17,268 bases of DNA from Kiritimatiellia bacterium (GTDB lineage: Bacteria; Verrucomicrobiota; Kiritimatiellia; RFP12; JBMNHG01), in the NCBI GenBank assembly GCA_045627705.1, contig JAZQOE010000063.1, positions 1 through 17,268 on the forward strand, read 5' to 3'. The position numbers and the translations under genes are program-made. Shown here piece after piece: positions 1,802 through 15,168 of the stretch (the first letter of the stretch is position 1; every line of letters begins with the position of its first letter). Below the pieces are notes generated by a model that worked only from the letters and a program-made list of their open reading frames with translations, was not told the origin of the DNA and ran no database searches.

Positions 1802-2944
1802 TCAACCAAACCGTTTCTTGTTGAAGTCTTCGAACTGCGCCAGCATGGTTGGGGTTATGGAGGAAGGAATGACCGTGCGGGCTTCTTCAAGGTCGGATGG
1901 GACGACGAGCGGATCGCCGCCGGTATCTATGCTGCGGCGGAAGGCTATTTGACAGGCCTTTTTCGCAAGGCCGACGATATCGCTGCCGGAGTACATGGCA
2001 AGCGCCTCCGCCCATGCGTCGAGATCGATCGACTTGTCGATAGCGGCCTTCTTGAAAGCGCGGGCGAGCATTCCGCGGCGGGCGGGGGCGTCCGGGACCC
2101 CGATAAAAATCTTTTCGTCGAAGCGTCCGGTACGGAACACGGCCTCGTCGATCTCCCACGGCTTGTTGGTCGCGCCGAGGATAAGCAGGATATTCGGGCT
2201 GTCCTTGAAACCGCCGACATCGGCGAGGAACTGTGTGACGAGGCGGTTATCGACAGCCGAGGAACTTTCCGTGCGACGCGGGAGAAGGCCATCGATTTCA
2301 TCGAGGAACAGCACGGCGACAGGCTTGTCCTGCGCGGCGTGGATGAGCCGCGACAGTTTCTGCTCGCTTTCGCCGTGCCACTTCGAGCGGATCTGCGCAC
2401 CGGAAGCATAGAAGAACGGAGCGGAAATCTCGTGGGCGATCGCCTTTCCAAACATCGTCTTGCCATTGCCGGGCGGACCATAGAGCAGGACACCTCCGCC
2501 AGGCTTGATGCCGAGTGCCATGGCCTTTTCCGGCTCGCGCATCGGGTTAATCACCATATCGAAAATCGCGGCCTTGGCGTTCTCCATGCCATCGATGTCG
2601 TCGAAAGAAACCCCGGTGTCGGCGGTGACCTGGAACTCGGAATCATCATCGTTTTCCTGCGGTTGGCCGGACGTGGCGACGGCATCGCGTGATTCGCGCG
2701 ACAACGATGCGAGTGCGGACGGCGGCGACAACTTCGCAGTCTTCAGTTTCTCCGCGATTTCAAGCCAGCCTTCCGCGGTCGATACATAGCTGGCGGCGAC
2801 GGGACCAGTCGATTGTCGCGCAAGGGCGAAGCAAAACTCGGCGGCCTTGGCCGCGTGGAAGATCGCCTTTGCATTGTCGCCAGCCTTGATTGCGGACTCG
2901 CAGGCTGATTCGTGTTCGGACTTCTTGTCGGAGAGGAAGCTCAT
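1802..2944 (-). CDS. Vps4-like AAA+ ATPase (meiotic-clade AAA) with an N-terminal MIT-like three-helix domain and a Vps4-type C-terminal helix.
   Basis: 380 aa with an ATG start. Walker A GPPGNGKT, Walker B VLFLDEID, and second-region-of-homology/arginine-finger motifs LGATNKPWEIDEAVFRTGRFDEKIFIGVPD. SKWHGESEQKLSRLIHAAQ closely parallels the Vps4/katanin/spastin SKWLGESEKLV region. The N-terminal ~75 aa (AIKAGDNAKAIFHAAKAAEFCFALARQ...AEGWLEIAEKLK) resemble the Vps4 MIT domain (…EYLDRAEKLK). The C-terminal …MLAQFEDFNKKRFG parallels the Vps4 C-terminal helix …LKKFTEDFGQEG. GC3 is strongly biased. Confidence 0.88.
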   Translation of the reverse strand: MSFLSDKKSEHESACESAIKAGDNAKAIFHAAKAAEFCFALARQSTGPVAASYVSTAEGWLEIAEKLKTAKLSPPSALASLSRESRDAVATSGQPQENDDDSEFQVTADTGVSFDDIDGMENAKAAIFDMVINPMREPEKAMALGIKPGGGVLLYGPPGNGKTMFGKAIAHEISAPFFYASGAQIRSKWHGESEQKLSRLIHAAQDKPVAVLFLDEIDGLLPRRTESSSAVDNRLVTQFLADVGGFKDSPNILLILGATNKPWEIDEAVFRTGRFDEKIFIGVPDAPARRGMLARAFKKAAIDKSIDLDAWAEALAMYSGSDIVGLAKKACQIAFRRSIDTGGDPLVVPSDLEEARTVIPSSITPTMLAQFEDFNKKRFG

Positions 2945-2959: not shown

Positions 2960-3478
2960 TCAGGCCAATAACACGCGCCACAGCAAGGCGGCAACAAGCA
3001 CCAGTATCCATAGCGAAAGCAGGCTTTCCAACAGATACCAGACGCGGCCCAGGAGCAATGCCATCGCATTCGGGCGAGATGCCATGATAACGCCGTTGAG
3101 GAAGGCGAAGACGATGTTGCCAGCGATCGCGACGAGGACGGCCCATATCGTGAAGCGCAGAACCTTGCCGTGGACAACCTTTTTGCCTGGCGCAGCGAAA
3201 CCTGTCTGCAGGAGATTTTTCCAAACGACCGGCTCGGAAGCGAGGCGGTCGGCATAGAGCCCGGCATTCTGCGCCTTCTCTTCCTCGGTCCATTCGACCA
3301 AGGGCTTTGTCTGCATTGGATCAACGGCAGGAATCGCCTTTGCGCAGGCGCCGACGCCGAAAACCGCGAGGACAATTGCCGCTACGCAAGCGGCGACGAT
3401 ACCAATGCGGCGGATTGCTTTTCCGCGGCGATACTTCACAAGGCGTTCCTGAACTTCCTGGTCTGTCATCTCTGCCAT
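2960..3478 (-). CDS. Small polytopic inner-membrane protein of unknown function, encoded between the ESCRT-III-like gene and the Vps4-like gene.
   Basis: The track ORF starts 8 codons earlier on a weak start. I use the ATG at 3476-3478, which is preceded by AAAGGGGAAA 6 nt upstream. Product MAEMTDQEVQERLVKYRRGKAIRRIGIVAACVAAIVLAVFGVGA... has one N-proximal and two or three C-terminal hydrophobic helices. Its stop is 15 nt upstream of the Vps4-like ATG, suggesting translational coupling. Confidence 0.7.
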   Translation of the reverse strand: MAEMTDQEVQERLVKYRRGKAIRRIGIVAACVAAIVLAVFGVGACAKAIPAVDPMQTKPLVEWTEEEKAQNAGLYADRLASEPVVWKNLLQTGFAAPGKKVVHGKVLRFTIWAVLVAIAGNIVFAFLNGVIMASRPNAMALLLGRVWYLLESLLSLWILVLVAALLWRVLLA

Positions 3479-3521
3479 GTTGATTTCCCCTTTTCGACGC
3501 ATGCGATGCGATGGCGGTCGA

Positions 3522-4169
3522 TCATTTGCCGTCGAGGATGCTCTTCACGCGATCCTGGCCGGCGGACACGCGGGCGTCGATTTCCTTGCCGGCGGCGACG
3601 GGTGTCGCGGCGCCACCGATTTCGGCGGCGACCTCCTGTTCGAGCTGGGCGCCGAGATCCTCCATGCTGGGTATGTAATCCTTGGCGGTACCCGTTGCGC
3701 CCTCCATCTCCTTGTTGTACATCTTTTCCCAGAAACGGTCGCCATCGACCTGTTCGCCGAGGAGGTCCTGGGCGGTATCGAAGACATCCATGACCTTTTC
3801 GGGGTCGATGTTCACGACCTTGTTCAAGGCTCCAAGGGCGTCGGCGAACTGGGCGTCGGAACCCGCGACCTGCATCTTCGTAATGTACTGTTCGAAGATC
3901 CAGCGCTTCTGCTCGAGCTTCACCACGAGCGCCTGCGAGGCGCGGTAGCTGACGAGGGCGCGCTGGGCAGCGGCCTTCTCGCCGTTTTTCAGCGCCTCGC
4001 GGGCGGCGTCCCAACTCTTTTTCGCCTCTTTTTCGAGTTCCATCTGGCGATCCTTCACCGAATCCACGGCCTTTTCGGCGTCGCGGAAGGCATGGCGGCG
4101 CTCGCGGCGCTCCTCGCGTCTGCGTTCGGATGGTGACTTGAAGACGTTGAGAATGTCGGCGATATTCAT
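3522..4169 (-). CDS. ESCRT-III / Snf7-family protein (Snf7 and CHMP4-like helical hairpin with an acidic C-terminal tail).
   Basis: 215 aa with an ATG start and a GGAGTG Shine-Dalgarno. The core KNGEKAAAQRALVSYRASQALVVKLEQKRWIFEQYITKMQVAGSDAQFADALGALNKVVNIDPEKVMDVFDTAQDLLGEQ aligns by eye with the Snf7 and CHMP4 region TKGNKvmAknALkkKK...LE...eqqL...E.A....E...AM..GAKAMK..H..mDIDKVDEtMDEIrEQ. The C-terminal DYIPSMEDLGAQLEQEVAAE is acidic and amphipathic, like an ESCRT-III MIM region. The composition is coiled-coil-rich and is not PspA-like. Confidence 0.75.
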   Translation of the reverse strand: MNIADILNVFKSPSERRREERRERRHAFRDAEKAVDSVKDRQMELEKEAKKSWDAAREALKNGEKAAAQRALVSYRASQALVVKLEQKRWIFEQYITKMQVAGSDAQFADALGALNKVVNIDPEKVMDVFDTAQDLLGEQVDGDRFWEKMYNKEMEGATGTAKDYIPSMEDLGAQLEQEVAAEIGGAATPVAAGKEIDARVSAGQDRVKSILDGK

Positions 4170-4224: not shown

Positions 4225-5388
4225 TCAAGGATTGACTGGCACGGCCGCCTTCGGCTGCATGTTTTCATCGCCGGACACGAGGCTCATCAGCCCCGATGCG
4301 TCGATGCCGAGCGAATCGACCATTGTGCGGTTGGACTCCAGGAGATTGCGGAGGCGTTCGACGGAAAGCGGGTGCGTGCGCGTCGGGACGTCATCTACGC
4401 CGGCTGTTTCCTTCATCGCGAAGAAGAGTTCCCAGAACAGCCTGCCGACAAAGGTAGCCGTGGCCGCAGAATCATTTTCCCCGATCGTGGCGTTGATCAT
4501 GGTCGAAGCAAACGAATCCGCCTCGCGCTCCTGGTTGCGCGAGATGTCGAGGTTGTCGTTGATGGTGGAATCGCTGGAATCAAGGTGGCCGAGGACATGG
4601 TGGCCGATCTCATGCGAGAGGGTGCCGGCGACCATTCCCCCGGAAATAGCCTCCATGCCAGACATGAAACTTGGATCTCCGAGATCGGCGGCGCTGATGC
4701 CGCTGTCAATCAAAATGGAAATCGCGTCTTCCTTCGGCATCCTGCCAATCGAACCGATCAGTCCGACGAGCCGTTCGAGGCATTTGGAATCCTCGCCAAG
4801 CGCCATCCTGCGGGAATCCGCCGCTGATGCGCACCCGACAAGCCTGGCGAAATTCCATGCACCGGCGTTGAATTTGATAATCCGGCAGATTTCGCCGCTG
4901 GAATCATCCTTGCGTTTCGTTGCGAACGCATTGATTTCATCGTTATCGTTGTATTCAAGGCGTATGGAGTCGGCGATCGGCTTATAGATCTGATTCTTGG
5001 AAACGGCGTCGTTTGCGATCAGGCTTCCGAATATTTCGGCGAGTCTCTCGTGCGGGGCGTCGAAAATGGGGCCAAAGACCCCGTACTGTCCATTGTCGCT
5101 TGCGCTTCCGGCATTATTCTGCGCCTCCGTTCCGGTGGTCTCGCCTGACGGCCGCGGGCAACGGCCGAAAAGAGGCATTAGCCAGCATCTGACGCCAAAG
5201 AATGAAAGGAACACCAGTACAAGCGCTATCAGGGAGAACCACAGCCAGAATGTGCCGTTGCCGACCTTGCGCTGGCGGGAATATGGCATGGGAGTATCCA
5301 CTGGCGAGGCGGTGTGCGTCGTGCCAAGCCGACGTTCATATTCCTGCTGGAAGATTTCCTTGCGGGTCTTTTTCGGTTGTTCTGCCAT
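4225..5388 (-). CDS. Membrane-anchored HEXXH zinc metallopeptidase. The catalytic motif resembles the ImmA/IrrE (M78, DUF955) or M48 families.
   Basis: 387 aa with an ATG start and a GGAGTGAA Shine-Dalgarno. An N-terminal TM helix (WLWFSLIALVLVFLSFFGV) is followed by HEIGHHVLGH and, ~25 aa on, SRNQEREADSFA (Glu third ligand plus EA(D/N)xFA). This spacing fits ImmA/IrrE-type metalloproteases, although M48 has a similar SR..E.eADaFA motif. Confidence 0.7.
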   Translation of the reverse strand: MAEQPKKTRKEIFQQEYERRLGTTHTASPVDTPMPYSRQRKVGNGTFWLWFSLIALVLVFLSFFGVRCWLMPLFGRCPRPSGETTGTEAQNNAGSASDNGQYGVFGPIFDAPHERLAEIFGSLIANDAVSKNQIYKPIADSIRLEYNDNDEINAFATKRKDDSSGEICRIIKFNAGAWNFARLVGCASAADSRRMALGEDSKCLERLVGLIGSIGRMPKEDAISILIDSGISAADLGDPSFMSGMEAISGGMVAGTLSHEIGHHVLGHLDSSDSTINDNLDISRNQEREADSFASTMINATIGENDSAATATFVGRLFWELFFAMKETAGVDDVPTRTHPLSVERLRNLLESNRTMVDSLGIDASGLMSLVSGDENMQPKAAVPVNP

Positions 5389-5461: not shown

Positions 5462-6061
5462 TTAGAACACAAAACCGAGAATCGGCGACTGGCGGCCGCT
5501 GCCGGACTTGTTCCAGAGGCCGATCTGGAGCCCCATGCCGCATTCCGCGATGTTGAGGATGCCTATCTGGAGGCCGTTCAGCTCCTTTGTCCTGTTCACA
5601 AACCCGCCGATCGCGATGCCGCTGAAACTCTCCGACTTGTTGCCGAGGACATTGACGGCCAGACCACCGGCGTCGCGGTCGCATTCGCCGAACAGCCCGA
5701 GGTCGATGCCGAACATATCGACTGGCTTCGCGCCGATGTTCGGGAAGCTGAGGTTCACGCGGACGCCATAGACCGAGCAGTTGTCGAGCGGCGGGACGGA
5801 GAGCGGTCCGACCGTCAGCGCAAACGGCGATGTCGTCTCCTCCAGCACGACTGGATCGGCTACGACAGCGGTGGCGACAGGCGCGGAAAGATTGATTGGC
5901 GAAACAGGCACCACTGGCAATGGCGCCGGGGCGACAACTACCGATGGCGCAGCAGCACCGCCATTATCGACCGAACCGCGACCGAACGGGGCGTACTCCG
6001 CATCGGCAAAAGCCATGCAGGCCGCGACAGAGGCCATGGCCGCAAACAAGATATTCTTCAT
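5462..6061 (-). CDS. Secreted protein of unknown function, paralog 1. Signal peptide, conserved GLQIG-repeat C-terminal domain ending in Phe, possible small outer-membrane beta-barrel.
   Basis: The track ORF 5462..6328 over-extends. I use the internal ATG at 6059-6061, giving MKNILFAAMASVAACMAFA (signal peptide). The C-terminus ...ELNGLQIGILNIAECGMGLQIGLWNKSGSGRQSPILGFVF is shared with the next gene. Confidence 0.7.
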   Translation of the reverse strand: MKNILFAAMASVAACMAFADAEYAPFGRGSVDNGGAAAPSVVVAPAPLPVVPVSPINLSAPVATAVVADPVVLEETTSPFALTVGPLSVPPLDNCSVYGVRVNLSFPNIGAKPVDMFGIDLGLFGECDRDAGGLAVNVLGNKSESFSGIAIGGFVNRTKELNGLQIGILNIAECGMGLQIGLWNKSGSGRQSPILGFVF

Positions 6062-6102: not shown

Positions 6103-6669
6103 TTAGAACACGAAACCGAGGATCGGCGACTGGCGACCGCTGCCGGACTTGTTCCAGAGGCCGATCTGGAGGCCCGAACCGCAATCGGCGATGTTGATGA
6201 GGCCGACCTGGAGGCCGTGGAGTTCGTGGGTCCGATTGAGGAATACCGAAATCTGGATGCCTTCGAACACGCCGGGGCAGTCGTTGTCGAGGACATTGAC
6301 CCAGAGTCCGCCGCCATCGCGGCGGCACTCGCCGCTGAGGCCGACATCGACCGCGTACATGTCTATCGGCACATCGGTCACCTGCGGGATACCAAGATTC
6401 ACTCCGACGCCGTATAGGTTCAAGTCGTGGAGGAAAGGAATGCTGACAGGCCCGATTGTCAGGGCGAACGGGGTGAATCCCTCGCCGAAGTAGTCAGAAC
6501 GCGGGACAACCGGGGGATTCTCCGGATAAACAGTTTCATAGCCGGCACCAACCTTGTGCGGGGATACCAAGCTGGCGTCTCCAGGCCTGACTACCGAATA
6601 AGGGGCGGCTTGGCAGGCCGCGGCCAGCACGAAAAATAGCGAGACAGATGCGAACAACGACTTTTTCAT
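6103..6669 (-). CDS. Secreted protein of unknown function, paralog 2. Signal peptide, same conserved C-terminal domain.
   Basis: 188 aa with an ATG start. MKKSLFASVSLFFVLAAACQA is a signal peptide. The body is conserved with paralog 1 (SPFALT.GP.S.P......YGV.VNL.......D.....D.GL.GEC.RD.GGL.VNVL.N...GI.I..F.NRT.EL.GLQ.G.LNIA.CG.GLQIGLWNKSGSGRQSPILGFVF). Confidence 0.75.
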   Translation of the reverse strand: MKKSLFASVSLFFVLAAACQAAPYSVVRPGDASLVSPHKVGAGYETVYPENPPVVPRSDYFGEGFTPFALTIGPVSIPFLHDLNLYGVGVNLGIPQVTDVPIDMYAVDVGLSGECRRDGGGLWVNVLDNDCPGVFEGIQISVFLNRTHELHGLQVGLINIADCGSGLQIGLWNKSGSGRQSPILGFVF

Positions 6670-6736: not shown

Positions 6737-7618
6737 TTATAACGGGCGGTGGACGTTAAGCTCTTCGATCGTGTAGATGCGGTTCATTATGCCGTCGGGG
6801 AAGAAACTGCGGTCGTAGAGCACATCGACCACGATCGTGCGCGAGGCATTGCTTGTCGAAACGACATGGCAGTCATAGACGCCATCGAGACGTGTGAGCA
6901 CGTCGCAGAAAAGCGACGGGTAGTCGGAATGGCGGTCAAGAAACCAGGCGTTGGCGATAGTGATGCGGCTGATTTCCATCTGTCCGGCCACCTTGAGGCA
7001 GCTTTCGGCCGCCCACTTCGAAACCGAATCGGCCATCTTGGAGGAGACATCGCGGATAGCCTCTTCGCGGGAACGGGCCTGCTCGCCCTGCGCATCAAAC
7101 AGACGATGCGCCACGACTCCGGCCTCCTTGCGGCCGTTAACCGCGTTGACCTCTGGACTGCGGGTCACGGAGAAATCAATCTCGCCCCTGTAAACAAGGC
7201 GCGAACCGCGGGAATTGCGCTCGGCGCACTTGACCTTGCCATAGACGAGCAATTCGGCGGGGACATCGTAAACGACGCTGAAACCCTGGCCCGACAGCAC
7301 ACCCTCGACATCCGCGCGAAGGTAGTCGCAGAGCGTGGCGGCATCGTCGTCGACCGGTTCGAGGCTGAGGTACGTGCGGAGCGGAACGACCTTGGCTGTC
7401 GCCGTGGCCTGGACTTGCGTGCCATTGGTCTCATCTACCGGCTGGGCGCTGACGGCGACGTATTGTCCGCCCTGGCCAACATATTGGGTGCCGCCAGTGA
7501 CGTGCTGGTCGCCTCCAGCGTAGTTGACGTACGGATAGGCGGTGCGGCAGCCAGACAGGGCCATGGCGGCGGCAACGGCCGCGAATGTCATTGCCCAAAT
7601 AGAAACCTTGCTGTTCAT
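6737..7618 (-). CDS. Lipoprotein of unknown function.
   Basis: 293 aa. MNSKVSIWAMTFAAVAAAMALSGC has a lipobox (LSGC), followed by a Gly/Gln/Tyr-rich linker and then a globular domain. GC3 is coding-like. My by-eye coordinate for the start differs from the track by 1 nt, so I use the track. Confidence 0.75.
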   Translation of the reverse strand: MNSKVSIWAMTFAAVAAAMALSGCRTAYPYVNYAGGDQHVTGGTQYVGQGGQYVAVSAQPVDETNGTQVQATATAKVVPLRTYLSLEPVDDDAATLCDYLRADVEGVLSGQGFSVVYDVPAELLVYGKVKCAERNSRGSRLVYRGEIDFSVTRSPEVNAVNGRKEAGVVAHRLFDAQGEQARSREEAIRDVSSKMADSVSKWAAESCLKVAGQMEISRITIANAWFLDRHSDYPSLFCDVLTRLDGVYDCHVVSTSNASRTIVVDVLYDRSFFPDGIMNRIYTIEELNVHRPL

Positions 7619-7643: not shown

Positions 7644-8861
7644 TCAGCGGACTCGGATCATCGTGTGCGTGACGAACCATACGATTGCCAGGACGACGAC
7701 CAAGAGGATGAAGTTACGCGGTGTGATGACGGAGCGGAACCACGTGGCGAGCAGTTCAAGCCAGTCTGGGCTATAGACACCGCGGCCCTGGGCGGCGGCA
7801 ACGACCTTGAAGCTGTTGCCGATGTCGCGGAACTTGACGTCTGTCACGACCTCGTACCTGGTGTTGTAGCCCGGGGTGGTCGTAAGGGTCAAGCGGTCGA
7901 GGTTCTTGCCCGTCGGGTCAAGGACGATCGTTCCGTTGTCATCGGAGACGGTGACGCTCCCGTTCAAGACAGCCATCCGGCCATCGCGGACATTGGGACC
8001 GAGCTTGCGGGTCAACTGATCAAGCACCGAGTCGCTGAACTGGATGTTTGTCCCGGCGCGCTGGCGGAGGAAGCGGGCCATCATGCGGTCGCTTGCGCCA
8101 CCATTCGGAAGGTCGTACACCACGATGCTATTCTGGCGGCCCTGCCGCGTGACCTCGTTGAGGAACACCTGCGACATAGCGCGCCCAAGAGGCCCGTCGA
8201 AGGGAATCAGGAACGAGCCATAGCCATCGACATCGGCCGGGATGTTCCTGACGAGTTCCTCGGCCGCCAATTCGACGGCGCGCCGCCATTGGGCAGGGAG
8301 TTGCTCGTTGTCTGGACCCATGTCGTCGTATGTGCCTTCGACCGTGCCGCTCCACAGCAGTTCGGATGTCTCGACCTTGTAGAGCCGGAGATTGACGCGG
8401 ACGATCGTCCTGAAGGAATTTTCCTGGGCGCCGACAACCTGGCCGAGCAGGAGTGCGTCGGCGAGTTTCAACTTGCCGATGACGGGGAGGACATTCTTGG
8501 CGTAATCGGTGAAATCAGATGCCTGGTCGAAGACCTTGTCGATATCCTTCCACTCCTCGCGGTCGCTGTGAAGTACGAATCGGAAGTCGGCGGGGACTTG
8601 TCCAAGCGCACCCTCGAAGATGAGGGAGATGTCGGAATCGGATGCGAACATGCCCTGGCTATCGGATGTCATCAACCTGGTGAAAGCGATGTTTTTCGTG
8701 CCCGCGACGCGCGGGTCGAGAGACATCTGCATGATTGCCTGAAACGCCGCGTCTTCGACGGCGTATTGCGCCTCGAGCTGCCCGGCGACAACCGGAGCGG
8801 CCGCGAACAGGGCGGCTGCAACGCAGCCTTTGAACCAACCAATGGTCTTTGTGAAGTTCAT
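7644..8861 (-). CDS. Secreted, C-terminally membrane-anchored protein of unknown function.
   Basis: The track ORF starts 13 codons earlier. I use the ATG at 8859-8861, which has an AGGAAAGG Shine-Dalgarno. MNFTKTIGWFKGCVAAALFAAAPVVAG is a signal peptide. A ~360 aa soluble region ends in a hydrophobic anchor NFILLVVVLAIVWFVTHTMIRVR. Confidence 0.7.
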   Translation of the reverse strand: MNFTKTIGWFKGCVAAALFAAAPVVAGQLEAQYAVEDAAFQAIMQMSLDPRVAGTKNIAFTRLMTSDSQGMFASDSDISLIFEGALGQVPADFRFVLHSDREEWKDIDKVFDQASDFTDYAKNVLPVIGKLKLADALLLGQVVGAQENSFRTIVRVNLRLYKVETSELLWSGTVEGTYDDMGPDNEQLPAQWRRAVELAAEELVRNIPADVDGYGSFLIPFDGPLGRAMSQVFLNEVTRQGRQNSIVVYDLPNGGASDRMMARFLRQRAGTNIQFSDSVLDQLTRKLGPNVRDGRMAVLNGSVTVSDDNGTIVLDPTGKNLDRLTLTTTPGYNTRYEVVTDVKFRDIGNSFKVVAAAQGRGVYSPDWLELLATWFRSVITPRNFILLVVVLAIVWFVTHTMIRVR

Positions 8862-8909
8862 GGTGTTAACCTTTCCTATTTGACAGAAACAGACAAGCAT
8901 TCAAGAAAT

Positions 8910-9857
8910 TCAGCCCAGTTCCGGGCTTTCGGTTATGCCGTCGCGGTCGCGTGACGGCCTTTCCGGCATTGTTTCATCGGCCGATGCGACGGGAGTGGCG
9001 GCCGGGTCGGCGGCGGGGACATCCCACGCGCCATCGGAATCGAACTCCGAGAGCGCGGCGTCGAAGGAACCGTCGTCGCGATCCCTCCTGCGGCCGGCCT
9101 TGTCGAGGTCGCCAAGAGCATCCTGGAGATCCTCGGCATCATCGGACTTCTCCTCGATGGTATCGGCAAGACGGTCCACCATGTCCTCGTCGAGCGGGCC
9201 GCGAAGCCCATGGGCGAGCACCTCCATGAAACGACCCTTCACGCTGGCGATCGACTTCTCGTTCTCGCAAAGCAGCGCGTATTCCCGTTCCAGGCCCTTG
9301 TACTGGGCCATGAGCGCCTCGAGTTCCATCTTGAGGATGCGGCGGCGCACTGGCGAAGCGGCTTCGTACGCCTTCTTCTTCTCGACAATCCCGCGATAGG
9401 CGGCGTCGAGTTCGGCGGAGGCGGCGTCGCGGCGGCGGCGGTTGCCGTCGAGGGCGCCGTTGAGCGAAACCAGCATCGCTTCCGGCGACCGATCCACGTG
9501 GATCTTCGACCAAAGGCTGCGCAGTCCGCCGCCGACCTTGCCGGCGAACGAGACGGCCTCCGCCATCGCCTTGGCGGCGAGTTCCTTCGGGGCGGACTTG
9601 ACCAGCTCGGCCTCCCGCAGGTCGCGCTCGCCCTCCGCCCTTTCGTTTTCCTTGTCCATCTTCTCCCCTTCCTTTCGGTCCGCCGCCTTCGGCGCCTTCC
9701 CGTCTTCCTTCCAGCCATGCGCGGGGCAACGGCCATTCCCGCCATGCGCGTGGAGCTGGCAGAACACGGCCTCGCAACCCGGTTCCGCGCAATGGCCGCC
9801 AATCGCCCAGCGATTGGGAAGCACCTGTTGGCAGATACAACATCTCGGTTCAGCCAT
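8910..9857 (-). CDS. Zinc-finger protein whose central and C-terminal region is ESCRT-III/Snf7-like (second ESCRT-III paralog).
   Basis: The track start is TTG. I use the ATG at 9855-9857, which has a GGGGTG Shine-Dalgarno. The N-terminus MAEPRCCICQQVLPNRWAIGGHCAEPGCEAVFCQLHAHGGNGRCPAHGW carries 8 Cys/His ligands (treble-clef, B-box or FYVE-like spacing). A Lys/Glu-rich linker follows, then helices RRRILKMELEALMAQYKGLEREYALL...GPLDEDMVDRLADTIEEKSDDAEDLQDAL that parallel Snf7 alpha2-alpha5 (…mDIDKVDEtMDEIrEQvElgDEIsDAI). The tail DDGSFDAALSEFDSDGAWDVP is acidic. Confidence 0.6.
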   Translation of the reverse strand: MAEPRCCICQQVLPNRWAIGGHCAEPGCEAVFCQLHAHGGNGRCPAHGWKEDGKAPKAADRKEGEKMDKENERAEGERDLREAELVKSAPKELAAKAMAEAVSFAGKVGGGLRSLWSKIHVDRSPEAMLVSLNGALDGNRRRRDAASAELDAAYRGIVEKKKAYEAASPVRRRILKMELEALMAQYKGLEREYALLCENEKSIASVKGRFMEVLAHGLRGPLDEDMVDRLADTIEEKSDDAEDLQDALGDLDKAGRRRDRDDGSFDAALSEFDSDGAWDVPAADPAATPVASADETMPERPSRDRDGITESPELG

Positions 9858-9935
9858 TGCGCACCCCACTGTAAACAACGTTTTTGTTATTTACATAATG
9901 ATGGTTTATCATAATTGTTGTTTGTCTGTCCATAT
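9858..9935 (-). promoter_or_regulatory. AT-rich island (~30% GC) between the FHA paralog and the zinc-finger ESCRT-III gene. Candidate internal promoter or regulatory spacer.
   Basis: A sharp compositional drop in an otherwise ~65% GC locus. It is the only intergenic gap in the cluster longer than 75 nt. No convincing hexamers were identified. Confidence 0.25.
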
Positions 9936-11276
9936 TTATTTTTGTTTATTTTTCTTATATTTCTTATACACGGGATTGTATTCCGTCACGCGAATGAGTC
10001 CCGCAGCACTTTGGAATTCCATCCCTGGTTCAAGAACGCCCGAACCTACGTTGCCGGTACTCCAGAAGAAGCCGCCGGCATCCGACCGCGCCACGATGAA
10101 ACCAGCGAGCGCAGGGATGACGACGCCGAAATCGAAGCATGACCAAAGGGCAACGAAGACCTCCGGATAGTCGTTTTTCTGCTGGATTACCACGCATGGC
10201 CTGATGCCGGTGCCGCACCAATCGCGCGATGGCACCTGGCAGACCGGGCACAGGCCGGCCGCCATCGGACTGTAGTATGCCACGGAAAGGGAAAAACTGC
10301 TTTCGCAACCCGTCGCGGGCGTGATTACGCCGGAATTGTGCGCCGCGTCGAGTATGCAGGCCTCCCCGGAAATGCGCGTGCCGTTCCAGAAGGTGCCGCA
10401 TGATGATGCATCCTTCAGGATCACCGAGGATCCCGCGCCGCAGATTATGCAGTGGTGGCGGCTGATCCTGCTTGATGCCGCATGCTCCTCGGCCGTCGTC
10501 TGGCATTTCTCCTGGAGAACGATCGTGTTGTCGCGGTGGCGCCCAATGGTGATTTCCTCCTTCGGGATAAGATGAATCAGAGTGCCGGCGATTTCAAGCG
10601 TGAGGTCTCCGCTGTAGGCGGGCGCCGTCTGCGCCGCCGCACATTGCGCCTGGGGCATGCTCGTCAGCTCCAGCGGCACGAGACGATAGGCGCGCGCTTC
10701 GCCATCGACCACCCTGCGCAGTTCCTCGAAGGAACTTTCGCCGGAATGCCGCAGCGAAAGGTCCTGTATGGCGTCGGCGGCATCCTGGGAAAGCCTGACG
10801 TCGGCAGCATGGCCGCATTGGATGTCGTTTCGGATGTTGAATACTATGTTTTCGGCGCACTTGCCGACCTCTTCTGAACGCGCGACGAAAAACGAGACAT
10901 TTCCGTCGAAGCTGTACGCTACGCCGTTCAGCACGAATGAAAGGATGATGTCCAGGGCATGGACGCCGGCGATGCCCGCGTCGATCTGCACGTTGTACTC
11001 GCGCATCGCCGCGAGAATCTGCCAGTTCTTGCTGTATTGCCTTCCGCTGCCCTGGAAACAGAGCGACAATGTCACATCCGAAAGGAATCCCTGTGCCTGG
11101 ATTGCCGGGCCGATGCGGAAGCGGAGGATGCCACTGCCGCGTTCGATGAGAAAGCAAAGGCTGTCGATCTCAAGCCTGACGGGGCAGTCGCCCGCCTGTG
11201 CCGCGAGCGGACTCCCGCATCGGTCGCAGAACTCGCCGGTGGCGGCGTGGCTTCCACATTTTGGACAAGTGGCCAT
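9936..11276 (-). CDS. Zinc-ribbon / FHA-domain protein, paralog B. N-terminal zinc ribbon, central FHA domain, conserved Cys-containing C-terminal domain of unknown function, Lys-rich tail.
   Basis: 446 aa with an ATG start. The N-terminus MATCPKCGSHAATGEFCDRCGSP is a zinc ribbon. FHA-like ITIGRHRDNTIVLQ...SRISRHHCII...GSSVILKDASSCGTFWNGTRISGE fits GR..N.IVL...SR.HA.I...D.S.NGTfvNG. The C-terminus WCGTGIRPCVVIQQKNDYPEVFVALWSCFDFG...GGFFWS...LEPGMEF...VTEY is shared with paralog A. The terminal VYKKYKKNKQK is encoded in the AT-rich island. Confidence 0.8.
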   Translation of the reverse strand: MATCPKCGSHAATGEFCDRCGSPLAAQAGDCPVRLEIDSLCFLIERGSGILRFRIGPAIQAQGFLSDVTLSLCFQGSGRQYSKNWQILAAMREYNVQIDAGIAGVHALDIILSFVLNGVAYSFDGNVSFFVARSEEVGKCAENIVFNIRNDIQCGHAADVRLSQDAADAIQDLSLRHSGESSFEELRRVVDGEARAYRLVPLELTSMPQAQCAAAQTAPAYSGDLTLEIAGTLIHLIPKEEITIGRHRDNTIVLQEKCQTTAEEHAASSRISRHHCIICGAGSSVILKDASSCGTFWNGTRISGEACILDAAHNSGVITPATGCESSFSLSVAYYSPMAAGLCPVCQVPSRDWCGTGIRPCVVIQQKNDYPEVFVALWSCFDFGVVIPALAGFIVARSDAGGFFWSTGNVGSGVLEPGMEFQSAAGLIRVTEYNPVYKKYKKNKQK

Positions 11277-11303: not shown

Positions 11304-12809
11304 TCACACGCCGGACTGGCGGTAGGGCGTTACCGCGACCGGTCCGTACGCCGAGTTGAGGGACATTCCGGGAACCAGGCGCCCGACATGGTGCTGCGGC
11401 GAACTCCATGCGAAACCGCCATCGGCACGCTTGATCCAGATTCCTTCCAGTCCGGGATCCGCATTGCCGAGGTTGAAGCATGACCAGAGCGCGACGAAGG
11501 TCTCGCGCGGGCCGTCGTTCGAGACGATGCGCAAACAGGGGCGACATCCGCCGCCGCACCATTCGGGTTTCGGGCCGACATCGCACGAACGGCAGAAATC
11601 GCAGGGCATGAAGGCGCGGATCCCGAAGGAAAACACGTCGTCGCCCGGCATTCCGCCAAGGAACACATCGGCTCCATCGTCGCCGATGAAATCGGTGATG
11701 TCCGCGGCGCCTTCGACATGGAGGACGCCCCAGGCCGCCGCGCCGCGGGCGCAGTCGAAGTATGTCCCGCGCGTCGATGCGATGCGCCCGCCGCGGTCGT
11801 CGACGGAGCCGTCGTGGAGCATCACGCGGCCCCCGTCGCAGTCGAAGTAGCAGTGCATGCGGCTCACCTTCCTCGTGTCGAAGCGCTCGCGGGCGTTGCC
11901 GAGCGTCCCCGGACGTACCACGATGGTATTCGAGCGACTGCGGCCGAGAAGAATCCGATTGCGCGCCACGAGGTGTATCATTCGCCCCTCCACGTTGAGG
12001 GTGATTGCGTCGGATGAATCATGCGGCGCGGCCGCATCGCCGAGTTCCTGCGCCCTGAAAGCCATGGCCTGGGGATCGCCTGCGGCCCCGGCCATGCGGA
12101 CGCTGGAAGAAGCCGCGCCAACGGCTCCACCAGCCGCGTAATTCGCGGTGAAGGCAGCGGGCGACACTCCGATAGACGGGCCGACACCCGGACGCGGCGA
12201 CCTCATTGGCATGGCCACGACTGGCTTGACCGGCACGCCCGGGACAAACGCGGGATGCGGGACGACCGCGACCGCCGGGGGAACAACCGAAACCGCCGGC
12301 ACCGGCGCGATAGCCAGCGAGGGATGCGACACGACCACCTGCGGCGCAGCGGGATTGACAACCGTCACTCCTGGATGGACTGGCGCCGCGGGCGGAACCG
12401 CGGAAACCACGGCCGCAGGCGGAGGCGGCGCGGCTACGACCGGTGCAGACCCGGCGAATGGCGGCGGAACAGGGCCGGGAATGGCGGCTGCGGCGCCAGG
12501 GATCACGGCCGCCGGAACCACGCCGGGGGCGACCGGAGCGACCACCGCCTCTGGAAGGGGGCTGGGCATCACGGTGGCGGCATGGCGCAGATAGCTATTT
12601 GACGGCGCAACCTGTGGCACGGCCGGCATCTCCGGAACAGCCGGAAGTCCAACCGGCGAGACAGCCGCCGCGACTTCGCCAGACATGGCATCCACCGGAG
12701 GTGTCGCATCCGATGCCGCGGAAGGCGCGGGCATCGCCAGCGGCGCACCGCAGCGCTCGCAGAAAGCGCCTGGCGATACATTGAATCCGCATTTGGGGCA
12801 CTTGACCAT
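11304..12809 (-). CDS. Zinc-ribbon / FHA-domain protein, paralog A. N-terminal zinc ribbon, ~180 aa Pro/Ala/Val-rich disordered linker, FHA domain, same conserved C-terminal domain.
   Basis: 501 aa with an ATG start and a GGGAAG Shine-Dalgarno. MVKCPKCGFNVSPGAFCERCGAP is a zinc ribbon. FHA-like ILLGRSRSNTIVVRP...VSRMHCYFDCDGGRVMLHDGS...STRGTYFD. C-terminus WCGGGCRPCLRIVSNDGPRETFVALWSCFNLG...GGFAWS...LVPGMSL...VTPY (~45% identity to paralog B over ~85 aa). Confidence 0.8.
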   Translation of the reverse strand: MVKCPKCGFNVSPGAFCERCGAPLAMPAPSAASDATPPVDAMSGEVAAAVSPVGLPAVPEMPAVPQVAPSNSYLRHAATVMPSPLPEAVVAPVAPGVVPAAVIPGAAAAIPGPVPPPFAGSAPVVAAPPPPAAVVSAVPPAAPVHPGVTVVNPAAPQVVVSHPSLAIAPVPAVSVVPPAVAVVPHPAFVPGVPVKPVVAMPMRSPRPGVGPSIGVSPAAFTANYAAGGAVGAASSSVRMAGAAGDPQAMAFRAQELGDAAAPHDSSDAITLNVEGRMIHLVARNRILLGRSRSNTIVVRPGTLGNARERFDTRKVSRMHCYFDCDGGRVMLHDGSVDDRGGRIASTRGTYFDCARGAAAWGVLHVEGAADITDFIGDDGADVFLGGMPGDDVFSFGIRAFMPCDFCRSCDVGPKPEWCGGGCRPCLRIVSNDGPRETFVALWSCFNLGNADPGLEGIWIKRADGGFAWSSPQHHVGRLVPGMSLNSAYGPVAVTPYRQSGV

Positions 12810-12827: not shown

Positions 12828-14762
12828 CTACTTGATATTGTTGAACTGCTGCGGCGGAGGAAGCGGCTGAATAGCCTTCTTCGCCGCCTCGTTGATCGGG
12901 GAGAGAAGCGTTCCCATGCGGCTGTCCTCTCGGTCGTAGGAATCGTCGTGGAGATCCTCCACCTTCTTTACGAAGCGTTCCGCGTCCTCGCGCGTCTTGT
13001 CCAGCTCGACCTGCTTGAGCCTTTCGAGCGCAACCGCGGCGGCGGGACTCTGGGCCGCGAGAGCCGCGAGTATCTGCTCCGGCGTGCGCGAGTTGTCGGA
13101 GGCGCGGAGCGCGGTGAGCGCGCCAGCGGCGATCGGGTCGGCGTTGTTCGCGGCAGCCTCGGCGAGAATGTGCTCGACATCGAGGGCGGCGTCGCGGTCG
13201 AGCTTGGCCTTCTGGAGCAGGCGAGCGCGAAGGGCGTCGTCATCGACATCCATCAGGCGTTCCTCGAGGGACATGCCGTGGCGGCGGTCGGCCTCGGCCT
13301 GCCTGTAGTCGAGGTTCACCTGGTTCTTTTCGCGGCGGACGCCGATCCACTCCTTCGCCTGGCGGACCTGCTCGTCCGCCGACATCCCGGAAATCTGCGT
13401 GGCATTCGTGGAGTTCTTGAGCGCCTCGCCGCGGTTGAAGTCCCCGATCTTGCCGGCGTTGGCGATGCTGTTATCGACCGCGCGGTCGCCGAGCCCGAAC
13501 TGGTGTGCCTGGTCCTCGTCTTCCACGGTGTAGGCGTGGTGGCGGAGTTCGTCGGCATGGCCGAGGCGCTCTATGTCGAGCATGCGCTGGTAAACTTCGG
13601 CCTCGTGCGAGCGCTCGCGCTTGAGGACTTCCCACTCGTGGTTGATTTCCTCGACCGTCAAGCCATATTCGTTGTTGAGGTCGAGGATGTAGCGCCGCAT
13701 GTCGTCGGCGTCCTTGTACTGCGACATGTTGCCGTGATCGACCGTCTTGCGAAGCGCGTCCCGGTATTCCTCGTAGCGGCGCTGCTGGTCGAGCGTGCGG
13801 CCATAGCCATACTGGGTCTCGTTGTCCTCAACCGAATCGCCGGCATGGGCCGTGACGTTCTGCTCGATGGTGGCGGCGAGCTTCTCGTATTCGTCGCCGG
13901 TGAATTCGGCGGAGGAAACGCGCGCGACTTCGAGTCCGCTGGCGGCCAGGTCATCCGCAACAAGGCGCGTCATCGACTCCTGCAGGCGGATGCGGCGCTG
14001 CGGGTCGCGGACAAGGTCGTCGAGCGTGGTCGCGGTACACATCGAATCGACGGCGAAGCGCATGACGGATTCGAGCCGTGCCGAAATCTCCGCCAGCGAC
14101 GTGCTGCGGTCAGACTTCATCAGGTTGGCCACCAGCGCCCGCGCGGAATCCTTGTCGCCGCGGAAACGGAGTATCACCTCGCCGTAGAATTCGATCGGAT
14201 AGCGCTCGGCTGTCGAAAGCGCCTCGATGTGCACTGGAAACGCCACTTCGGCGGCATCGACCAGCACCACTGAACGCGGCGGCGGATTGCCGAACCAGTT
14301 GATCTTGTGCGCCAGGCTGTCCGGGGCATGGCGGCCGCTTTCGAGGATGCCGCGCACCTCTCCGCCATCCATGATGATCGCGAGCGTTCCTTCCTGGATC
14401 TGGAGGCCGTCCTGGAGGATGCGCTTCACGTCGCCGATCTCGAAGCGCTGGGCGAACATCCCTGGCTCCTTGCGCCATACGCCCCCGGCCATCGCCGAAC
14501 GGTCGTCAGGGTAGAGCGGGGTGTTGCAGTGCGGGCAGAAGCGCGAGTCGTTGCCAATCCACTTGCCGCACGACGGACAGCGCCACCAGCCGCCAGGCGC
14601 AGGGCTGCCGCAGCGGTTGCAGAAGCGGGCGTTCTTCCTCACCCGGTTGCCGCAGCGCGGCCACTTGGGATCAAGCTTGGCCGCCTCGAGGGCATCGCCC
14701 GAAAGCGCCCTCTGCGTGTTTGGATCGATCAAGGCGTCGCAACGGTCTGTAAAGATTCCCAT
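12828..14762 (-). CDS. Double-zinc-ribbon SPFH (band-7 / flotillin-like) protein with a long C-terminal coiled coil.
   Basis: 644 aa with an ATG start and an AAAGGGA Shine-Dalgarno. Two CxxC...CxxC ribbons: RCGNRVRKNARFCNRCGSP and RCPSCGKWIGNDSRFCPHCNTP. The SPFH-like core is IQEGTLAIIMDGGEVRGILESGRH...SVVLVDAAEVAFPVHIEALSTAERYPIEFYGEVILRF...ARALVANLMKSDRSTSLAEISARLESVMRFAVDSMCTATTLDDLV...RIRLQESMTRLVADDLAASGLEVARVSS. A ~330 aa Glu/Arg/Ala/Leu-rich coiled coil follows. Confidence 0.8.
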   Translation of the reverse strand: MGIFTDRCDALIDPNTQRALSGDALEAAKLDPKWPRCGNRVRKNARFCNRCGSPAPGGWWRCPSCGKWIGNDSRFCPHCNTPLYPDDRSAMAGGVWRKEPGMFAQRFEIGDVKRILQDGLQIQEGTLAIIMDGGEVRGILESGRHAPDSLAHKINWFGNPPPRSVVLVDAAEVAFPVHIEALSTAERYPIEFYGEVILRFRGDKDSARALVANLMKSDRSTSLAEISARLESVMRFAVDSMCTATTLDDLVRDPQRRIRLQESMTRLVADDLAASGLEVARVSSAEFTGDEYEKLAATIEQNVTAHAGDSVEDNETQYGYGRTLDQQRRYEEYRDALRKTVDHGNMSQYKDADDMRRYILDLNNEYGLTVEEINHEWEVLKRERSHEAEVYQRMLDIERLGHADELRHHAYTVEDEDQAHQFGLGDRAVDNSIANAGKIGDFNRGEALKNSTNATQISGMSADEQVRQAKEWIGVRREKNQVNLDYRQAEADRRHGMSLEERLMDVDDDALRARLLQKAKLDRDAALDVEHILAEAAANNADPIAAGALTALRASDNSRTPEQILAALAAQSPAAAVALERLKQVELDKTREDAERFVKKVEDLHDDSYDREDSRMGTLLSPINEAAKKAIQPLPPPQQFNNIK

Positions 14763-14808: not shown

Positions 14809-15168
14809 TCACTTCCTAGTCTCATTCTTGCCGGCATTTCCCGCGCAATCCTTGCAGAGGCGCAGGCCAAGACGCGTCCAGCAGTCATTGCAGATCGGCG
14901 CCGCGCAGCCATCGCCCTGGCAGTGGTGCTTCAGCGACACGCGGCTGCGATAGACGTTGCCGCAGATAGAGCATTCGCCACCGCCGGAATTCTCGCGCTT
15001 CTTGTCCTCGAGATACACATCGAGGTCGGCGCGTGAAACCCTGTACAACTTTCCAAGGCGAAAAGCCGGAAGTTCGCCACTCCGCGCCAGTTTGTAAACG
15101 AGCTGATAGGTCACGCCGAGATAATCGGCGACCTCTTCAAGGCTCATATACTCTTTATCGGTTGGCAT
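14809..15168 (-). CDS. Excisionase/MerR-superfamily HTH DNA-binding protein with a C-terminal zinc-ribbon domain. Likely regulator and first gene of the cluster.
   Basis: 119 aa with an ATG start and an AAGGA Shine-Dalgarno. SLEEVADYLGVTYQLVYKLARSGELPAFRLGKLYRVSRADLDVYLE matches the excisionase-family HTH (HTH_17-like). C-terminus CSICGNVYRSRVSLKHHCQGDGCAAPICNDCWTRLGLRLCKDC. Confidence 0.8.
   Translation of the reverse strand: MPTDKEYMSLEEVADYLGVTYQLVYKLARSGELPAFRLGKLYRVSRADLDVYLEDKKRENSGGGECSICGNVYRSRVSLKHHCQGDGCAAPICNDCWTRLGLRLCKDCAGNAGKNETRK

Follow-up and report, generated by a model that had tools for sequence, protein, structure and literature searches.

An SPFH protein with zinc ribbons and no membrane anchor heads a conserved PVC-superphylum operon with Snf7-like and AAA genes

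The window analysed here is the whole 17,268-nt stretch of a contig from a Kiritimatiellia bacterium (assembly GCA_045627705.1, contig JAZQOE010000063.1). The target gene is the ORF at 12828..14762 on the minus strand, which, by the ORF list and its translation, has an ATG start and encodes 644 aa; its bounds are exactly those of the initial annotation, which gave no strand. An RBS-like sequence, GAAAGGGA, lies 8–14 nt upstream of the ORF start. The ORF list and Pfam matches divide the product into a double zinc ribbon, an SPFH domain and a long helical C-terminal region. Grouped at 50% identity, the family comprises 1007 clusters (E ≤ 1e-3), which makes it a large one; 238 homologous clusters of the target come from Kiritimatiellae and Planctomycetota, and all names found for family members are “hypothetical protein” or “zinc ribbon domain-containing protein”.

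The target gene belongs to a conserved operon of the PVC superphylum that encodes HTH_17, SPFH, zinc-ribbon FHA, Snf7-like, AAA and zinc/CHMP-like proteins, envelope lipoproteins and an M48 protease; in the window all of these genes lie on the minus strand. Directly upstream is the gene for an HTH_17 (excisionase/MerR-type) DNA-binding protein whose C-terminal module is Cys-rich (14809..15168; HTH_17 57.8 bits), and the target is the first structural gene after it. The gene for a 501-aa protein composed of a zinc ribbon, a Pro/Ala-rich linker and an FHA domain (11304..12809; Pfam FHA 22 bits) starts 18 nt past the target stop codon, as read from the junction sequence; it is followed by a second zinc-ribbon FHA paralogue of 446 aa (9936..11276; Pfam FHA 42.3 bits) and by a 322-aa helical protein with a Cys-rich N-terminus (8910..9878) that has a CHMP4B profile match. 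Gaps of 18 nt and 46 nt, together with RBS-like sequences, give the cluster an operonic spacing.

Farther downstream, the cluster encodes a 418-aa envelope protein whose N-terminus is signal-like and whose C-terminus carries a TM segment (7644..8900; weak LpoB/CsgG-like matches) and a predicted 293-aa lipoprotein with an LSGC lipobox-like motif (6737..7618), the genes of both being conserved across related loci; an LA_2272-family surface-repeat lipoprotein (6103..6669; NCBIfam NF047436, 35.7 bits); a second LA_2272-type paralogue (5462..6061, start taken at MKNILF) whose C-terminal sequence is that of the 6103–6669 product; and a membrane M48-type zinc metallopeptidase (4225..5388; Pfam Peptidase_M48 25.7 bits) with a HEIGHH motif and a TM segment at residues 42–75. 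Next come the genes for a 215-aa Snf7-type ESCRT-III-like protein (3522..4169; assigned from Pfam Snf7 and its orthologues), a small polytopic membrane protein of 180 aa that is found in the closest loci only (2960..3502), and a single-domain classical AAA ATPase of 380 aa (1802..2944; Pfam AAA 119.8 bits). Overall, membrane and periplasmic proteins are numerous, and four cluster proteins carry N-terminal zinc modules.

The cluster is restricted to the PVC lineage and is syntenic in at least 34 species-level genomes, in which its flanks are varied housekeeping genes. An HTH_17 gene lies upstream in 30 of 35 related loci, and an FHA protein gene is next downstream in 26 of 31. Related loci that extend 6 kb or more downstream number 24; the Snf7-like gene occurs in 17 of them and the AAA gene in 20. 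The position at the head of a cluster with Snf7-type and AAA genes that had been noted for the target holds, and the linkage is conserved in PVC bacteria. Within 10 kb, a recognizable AAA gene is missing from 4 of these 24 long loci and a Snf7-like gene from 7 (e.g. L005, L018, L036 and L037), and about a quarter of related loci have the SPFH–FHA–lipoprotein part but neither a Snf7-like nor an AAA gene within that distance. It is therefore possible that this part works alone, or that the modules are split in those genomes. HTH_17, AAA and Ser/Thr kinase genes also adjoin more distant members of the target family; in the distant loci L039–L041 a Snf7-like gene is not recognizable, save for one weak match. 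Integration of the cluster at the adjacent tmRNA gene was considered and rejected: the cluster is located 5′ of ssrA, and there is no integrase. A literature search found no description of the PVC cluster; its coverage was partial, and this absence is no proof.

The N-terminal 85 residues of the target (14508..14762) contain an MGIF motif and eight cysteines (C8, C37, C48, C51, C62, C65, C76 and C79), all of which are invariant in 53 homologues. Residues 35–80 match both DZR (PF12773; 34 bits vs. a cut-off of 27.3) and Zn_Ribbon_1 (41 bits), each above its Pfam cut-off, and the family profile matches the rubredoxin-like zinc finger of LapB (E 0.005). Eight invariant cysteines are enough for two Cys4 sites, and the N-terminus is predicted to form two such zinc sites. 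The double zinc ribbon proposed in the initial annotation is thus upheld, although not as four CxxC pairs: only three are present, the first knuckle being split between C8 and C37, which are 28 residues apart here and make up a CxC in shorter homologues.

The SPFH (Band 7) domain follows at residues ~100–305 (13848..14465). A search of the target with Band_7 (PF01145) gave 34.1 bits against a gathering cut-off of 23.6 (E 3.6e-8, residues 121–305), in agreement with the earlier SPFH call; a precomputed Band_7 domain is found in nearly all homologues, and an invariant loop, NWFGNPPPRS, occupies residues 155–164 within the domain. The target shows the α/β fold of SPFH domains. Its structural neighbours include the HflK/C–FtsH and QmcA–YbbJ complexes, and flotillin, stomatin, prohibitin and HflC rank above major vault protein (MVP) among them; Foldseek alignments of the target with flotillin cover 424–494 columns. 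A phmmer search of the target against PDB sequences returned zinc-finger or noise matches alone, and the family profile matched only zinc-finger entries in the PDB (LapB, L37a); the SPFH relation is therefore seen by Pfam and by fold comparison and not by sequence search of the PDB.

An N-terminal TM helix, hairpin or lipid anchor is usual in the SPFH superfamily but not universal; both YdjI and MVP lack one. The target has no TM or hairpin anchor either: the maximum 19-residue Kyte–Doolittle mean is 1.42, so that no segment reaches 1.6. Where classical SPFH members have a TM helix or hairpin, the target has its two Cys4 zinc ribbons, just as had been read from the sequence at the outset.

The remainder of the protein (residues 306–630; 12873..13847) is an all-helical, charged extension, as judged from AF2 secondary structure and conservation. 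AF2 predicts helix from residue 290 to 630, divided into at least eight helices, of which the longest span 370–432 and 573–630, with a disordered stretch at 429–459. Conserved motifs lie at ~490–512 (DAxRRxGM…DxEDPxxR), at ~560–566 (TPEQILA) and near the end (LEPAxEAAK). A crude a/d heptad test of the long helices against shuffled sequences was not significant (p 0.31–0.73). The ~330-aa coiled coil suggested initially is therefore confirmed as a long helical extension of the flotillin style, but the heptad test does not bear out a canonical coiled coil.

Two neighbouring genes bear on the ESCRT-III assignment to different degrees. The product of 3522–4169 scores 22.7 bits with Pfam Snf7 (E 8.7e-5), below the cut-off of 27.3; all 20 of its orthologues match Snf7 at E ≤ 0.01 (best E 7.1e-8), this being the sole family they have in common, and none of the 20 matches PspA_IM30. 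In the PDB, the orthologue profile matches the yeast Snf7 core best (E 0.18), and phmmer against PDB sequences gave zinc-finger or noise matches only. The Snf7-like protein has a conserved C-terminus, IPSMEDLxxxL. The Snf7 matches of the orthologues make a good case that the neighbour is a Snf7-type ESCRT-III-like protein. The 322-aa protein may possibly be a second, divergent ESCRT-III-like subunit: the best PDB match of its orthologue profile is the C-terminal part of CHMP4B (E 0.053), and weak Pfam Snf7 matches occur in 3 of 18 orthologues. However, hhalign found no relation between this zinc/helical protein and the Snf7-like family, and with the weak CHMP4B match as the main pointer its ESCRT-III-like status is doubtful.

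The AAA ATPase resembles Vps4 in its layout only. Its AF2 model, made from database homologues, has a confident three-helix N-terminal bundle (residues 2–69), a disordered linker and one AAA domain; a C-terminal helix is present, and the β-domain insertion is absent from the model. The bundle, the flexible linker, the single AAA domain, the C-terminal helix and the adjoining Snf7-type gene are all shared with Vps4/CdvC, and the pore loop SKWHGESE resembles the KWMGESE motif of Vps4. In contrast, the arginine-finger region is Cdc48-like (RxGRFD); the best 60 phmmer and the best 50 Foldseek matches are p97/Cdc48, VAT or AFG2; and p97/Cdc48 D1/D2 (33–36% identity) are the closest by sequence and fold among the matches listed. 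Pfam MIT matches none of 18 orthologues, and Vps4_C matches 7 of the 18 weakly (best E 0.014). The Vps4 label in the initial annotation thus holds architecturally and no further; the enzyme is closest to Cdc48/p97.

The Bacillus ydj system, which had been offered as an analogy, is a real one: YdjI is an SPFH protein that lacks a TM segment and carries a zinc finger; it depends on the membrane proteins YdjG/H, and PspA foci in turn depend on it (PMC8581546). The target likewise has an SPFH domain and no TM segment, and it shares its operon with a gene of the ESCRT-III superfamily; both proteins bear zinc modules and have zinc-ribbon and membrane partners (PMC8581546, PMC11237479). They differ in that the zinc finger of YdjI is C-terminal and the two ribbons of the target are N-terminal; in that YdjI is of the Band_7_1 type, whereas the target matches PF01145 and not PF13421 (Band_7_1), which is absent from its Pfam matches at E ≤ 1 and “faint” in one distant homologue; and in that the helical region of the target is much longer (about 250–340 aa). 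Moreover, the target is accompanied by a Snf7-type protein where YdjI has PspA_IM30 as its partner, and its cluster includes an AAA ATPase and FHA proteins.

A second likeness comes from archaea. “Meth_adaptin” ESCRT loci encode an SPFH, coiled-coil, zinc-ribbon protein (for example WP_013898576.1, Methanosalsum zhilinae) beside ESCRT-III and a Vps4-type ATPase, and in “Halo_FHA” loci FHA proteins accompany ESCRT-III/Vps4 (PMC10936438). By its description, the “Meth_adaptin” protein has the SPFH domain first (residues 1–212), whereas the zinc ribbons come first in the target; the PVC cluster lacks adaptin-like, GOLD and ProX partners and has periplasmic lipoproteins and an M48 peptidase instead; and it is bacterial, with a Cdc48-like ATPase, whereas according to the same survey ESCRT components cannot be identified in bacteria. 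The target also differs from the flotillins (flotillin-1/2, FloT/FloA), with which it shares only 13–15% identity: it has no hairpin, TM or lipid-modification anchor, no flotillin-specific Pfam family matches it at E ≤ 1, and a profile search of the window proteins found no NfeD-like protein.

Gene linkage and the analogies with YdjI–PspA and the archaeal loci suggest, with a probability that we put at about one half, that the target is an SPFH platform, recruited by partner proteins, on which the ESCRT-III-like polymer would assemble. The closest tested analogue of this proposed role is YdjI, on which PspA depends to reach the membrane. Like other SPFH proteins, the target would form ring- or cage-shaped oligomers on the inner side of the cytoplasmic membrane, to which partner proteins would recruit it via the zinc ribbons and/or the conserved aromatic loop. 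There it would mark or organize the patch at which the Snf7-like polymer assembles; the AAA ATPase would disassemble the polymer; FHA/Ser-Thr-kinase signalling would gate the process; and the likely output would be repair or remodelling of the envelope membrane.

SPFH proteins often gate membrane proteases: HflK/C regulates FtsH, and stomatin and QmcA work with NfeD partners. The target could accordingly form an SPFH cage in control of a membrane protease, with the M48 (HtpX-like) peptidase of the cluster as its client and the ESCRT-III-like genes as a separate neighbouring module. The occurrence of M48 in the window cluster and in eight related loci (L005, L008, L011, L014, L029–L031 and L033), the HflK/C–FtsH and QmcA–YbbJ complexes among the structural neighbours and the established precedent of SPFH gating all speak for this proposal. 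We consider it unlikely, since no more than 8 of the 24 long loci have an M48 gene, compared with 17–20 for the Snf7-like and AAA genes, since its place is at the cluster's far end and in no case beside the SPFH gene, and since no NfeD-like protein was detected in the window.

Somewhat less probable still is that the target makes no membrane contact and uses its SPFH domain for oligomerization only, as a soluble vault- or cap-like cytoplasmic assembly or as a zinc-ribbon/FHA-linked signalling adaptor. MVP, which is soluble and has an SPFH-like shoulder and a cap helix, is among the structural matches; the target has no TM segment or hairpin; and the zinc modules on four cluster proteins could mediate protein–protein contacts. 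However, MVP is outranked by flotillin, stomatin, prohibitin and HflC, the TM-less YdjI still acts at the membrane, the cluster encodes many membrane and periplasmic proteins, and members of the partner Snf7 family form polymers that bind membranes. That the cluster is an anti-phage or abortive-infection island, with the target as one of its sensors or effectors, seems very improbable. Generic PADLOC matches (IetA for the AAA protein, Lit/peptidase_U41 for the M48 protein) and the resemblance of the HTH_17 protein to excisionase/MAD1-type HTH proteins hint at such a role, but the SPFH, FHA, Snf7-like, zinc/CHMP-like and lipoprotein genes have no PADLOC match, PHROGs matches are confined to generic zinc-ribbon, HTH and AAA modules, and the PVC-restricted, syntenic cluster with its varied housekeeping flanks has no integrase or phage genes nearby.

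The reading of the target as a platform for a Snf7-like polymer can be extended, tentatively and at odds well below even, to the proposal that PVC bacteria hold a complete, dedicated ESCRT-like membrane-remodelling machine for ATP-driven scission or repair. Its parts would be, with the same reserve, an anchor-less SPFH cage, FHA/kinase-gated adaptors, a Snf7-type filament, possibly including the second, CHMP-like subunit, and an AAA disassemblase with an MIT-like bundle; equally tentative is a coupling of this machine across the envelope to the periplasmic lipoproteins and the membrane protease. Vesicle release, envelope repair or a division-related step are conceivable outputs, and the hosts would be Kiritimatiellae, Lentisphaerae/Victivallales, Verrucomicrobia-labelled MAGs and some Planctomycetota.

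SPFH and ESCRT-III proteins are both ancient membrane organizers. Experimental proof of a partnership between them exists only for Bacillus YdjI–PspA; for a few archaeal loci it has been inferred. According to recent surveys, bacteria lack ESCRT components beyond PspA/Vipp1, notably a Vps4-like ATPase (PMC10936438, PMC7619361); a complete PVC machine, if true, would contradict the statement that the Vps4-type partner of ESCRT-III is absent from bacteria. What is new here is a conserved PVC operon that joins an anchor-less zinc-ribbon SPFH scaffold to FHA proteins, a predicted Snf7-type protein and an AAA ATPase whose bundle is MIT-like, and this operon offers a concrete, testable bacterial system for the targeting of ESCRT-III-like polymers. 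It raises the questions of whether the SPFH–ESCRT-III link is older than the archaeal–bacterial split, was transferred or was re-invented, and of whether the unusual membranes of PVC bacteria make use of such machinery.

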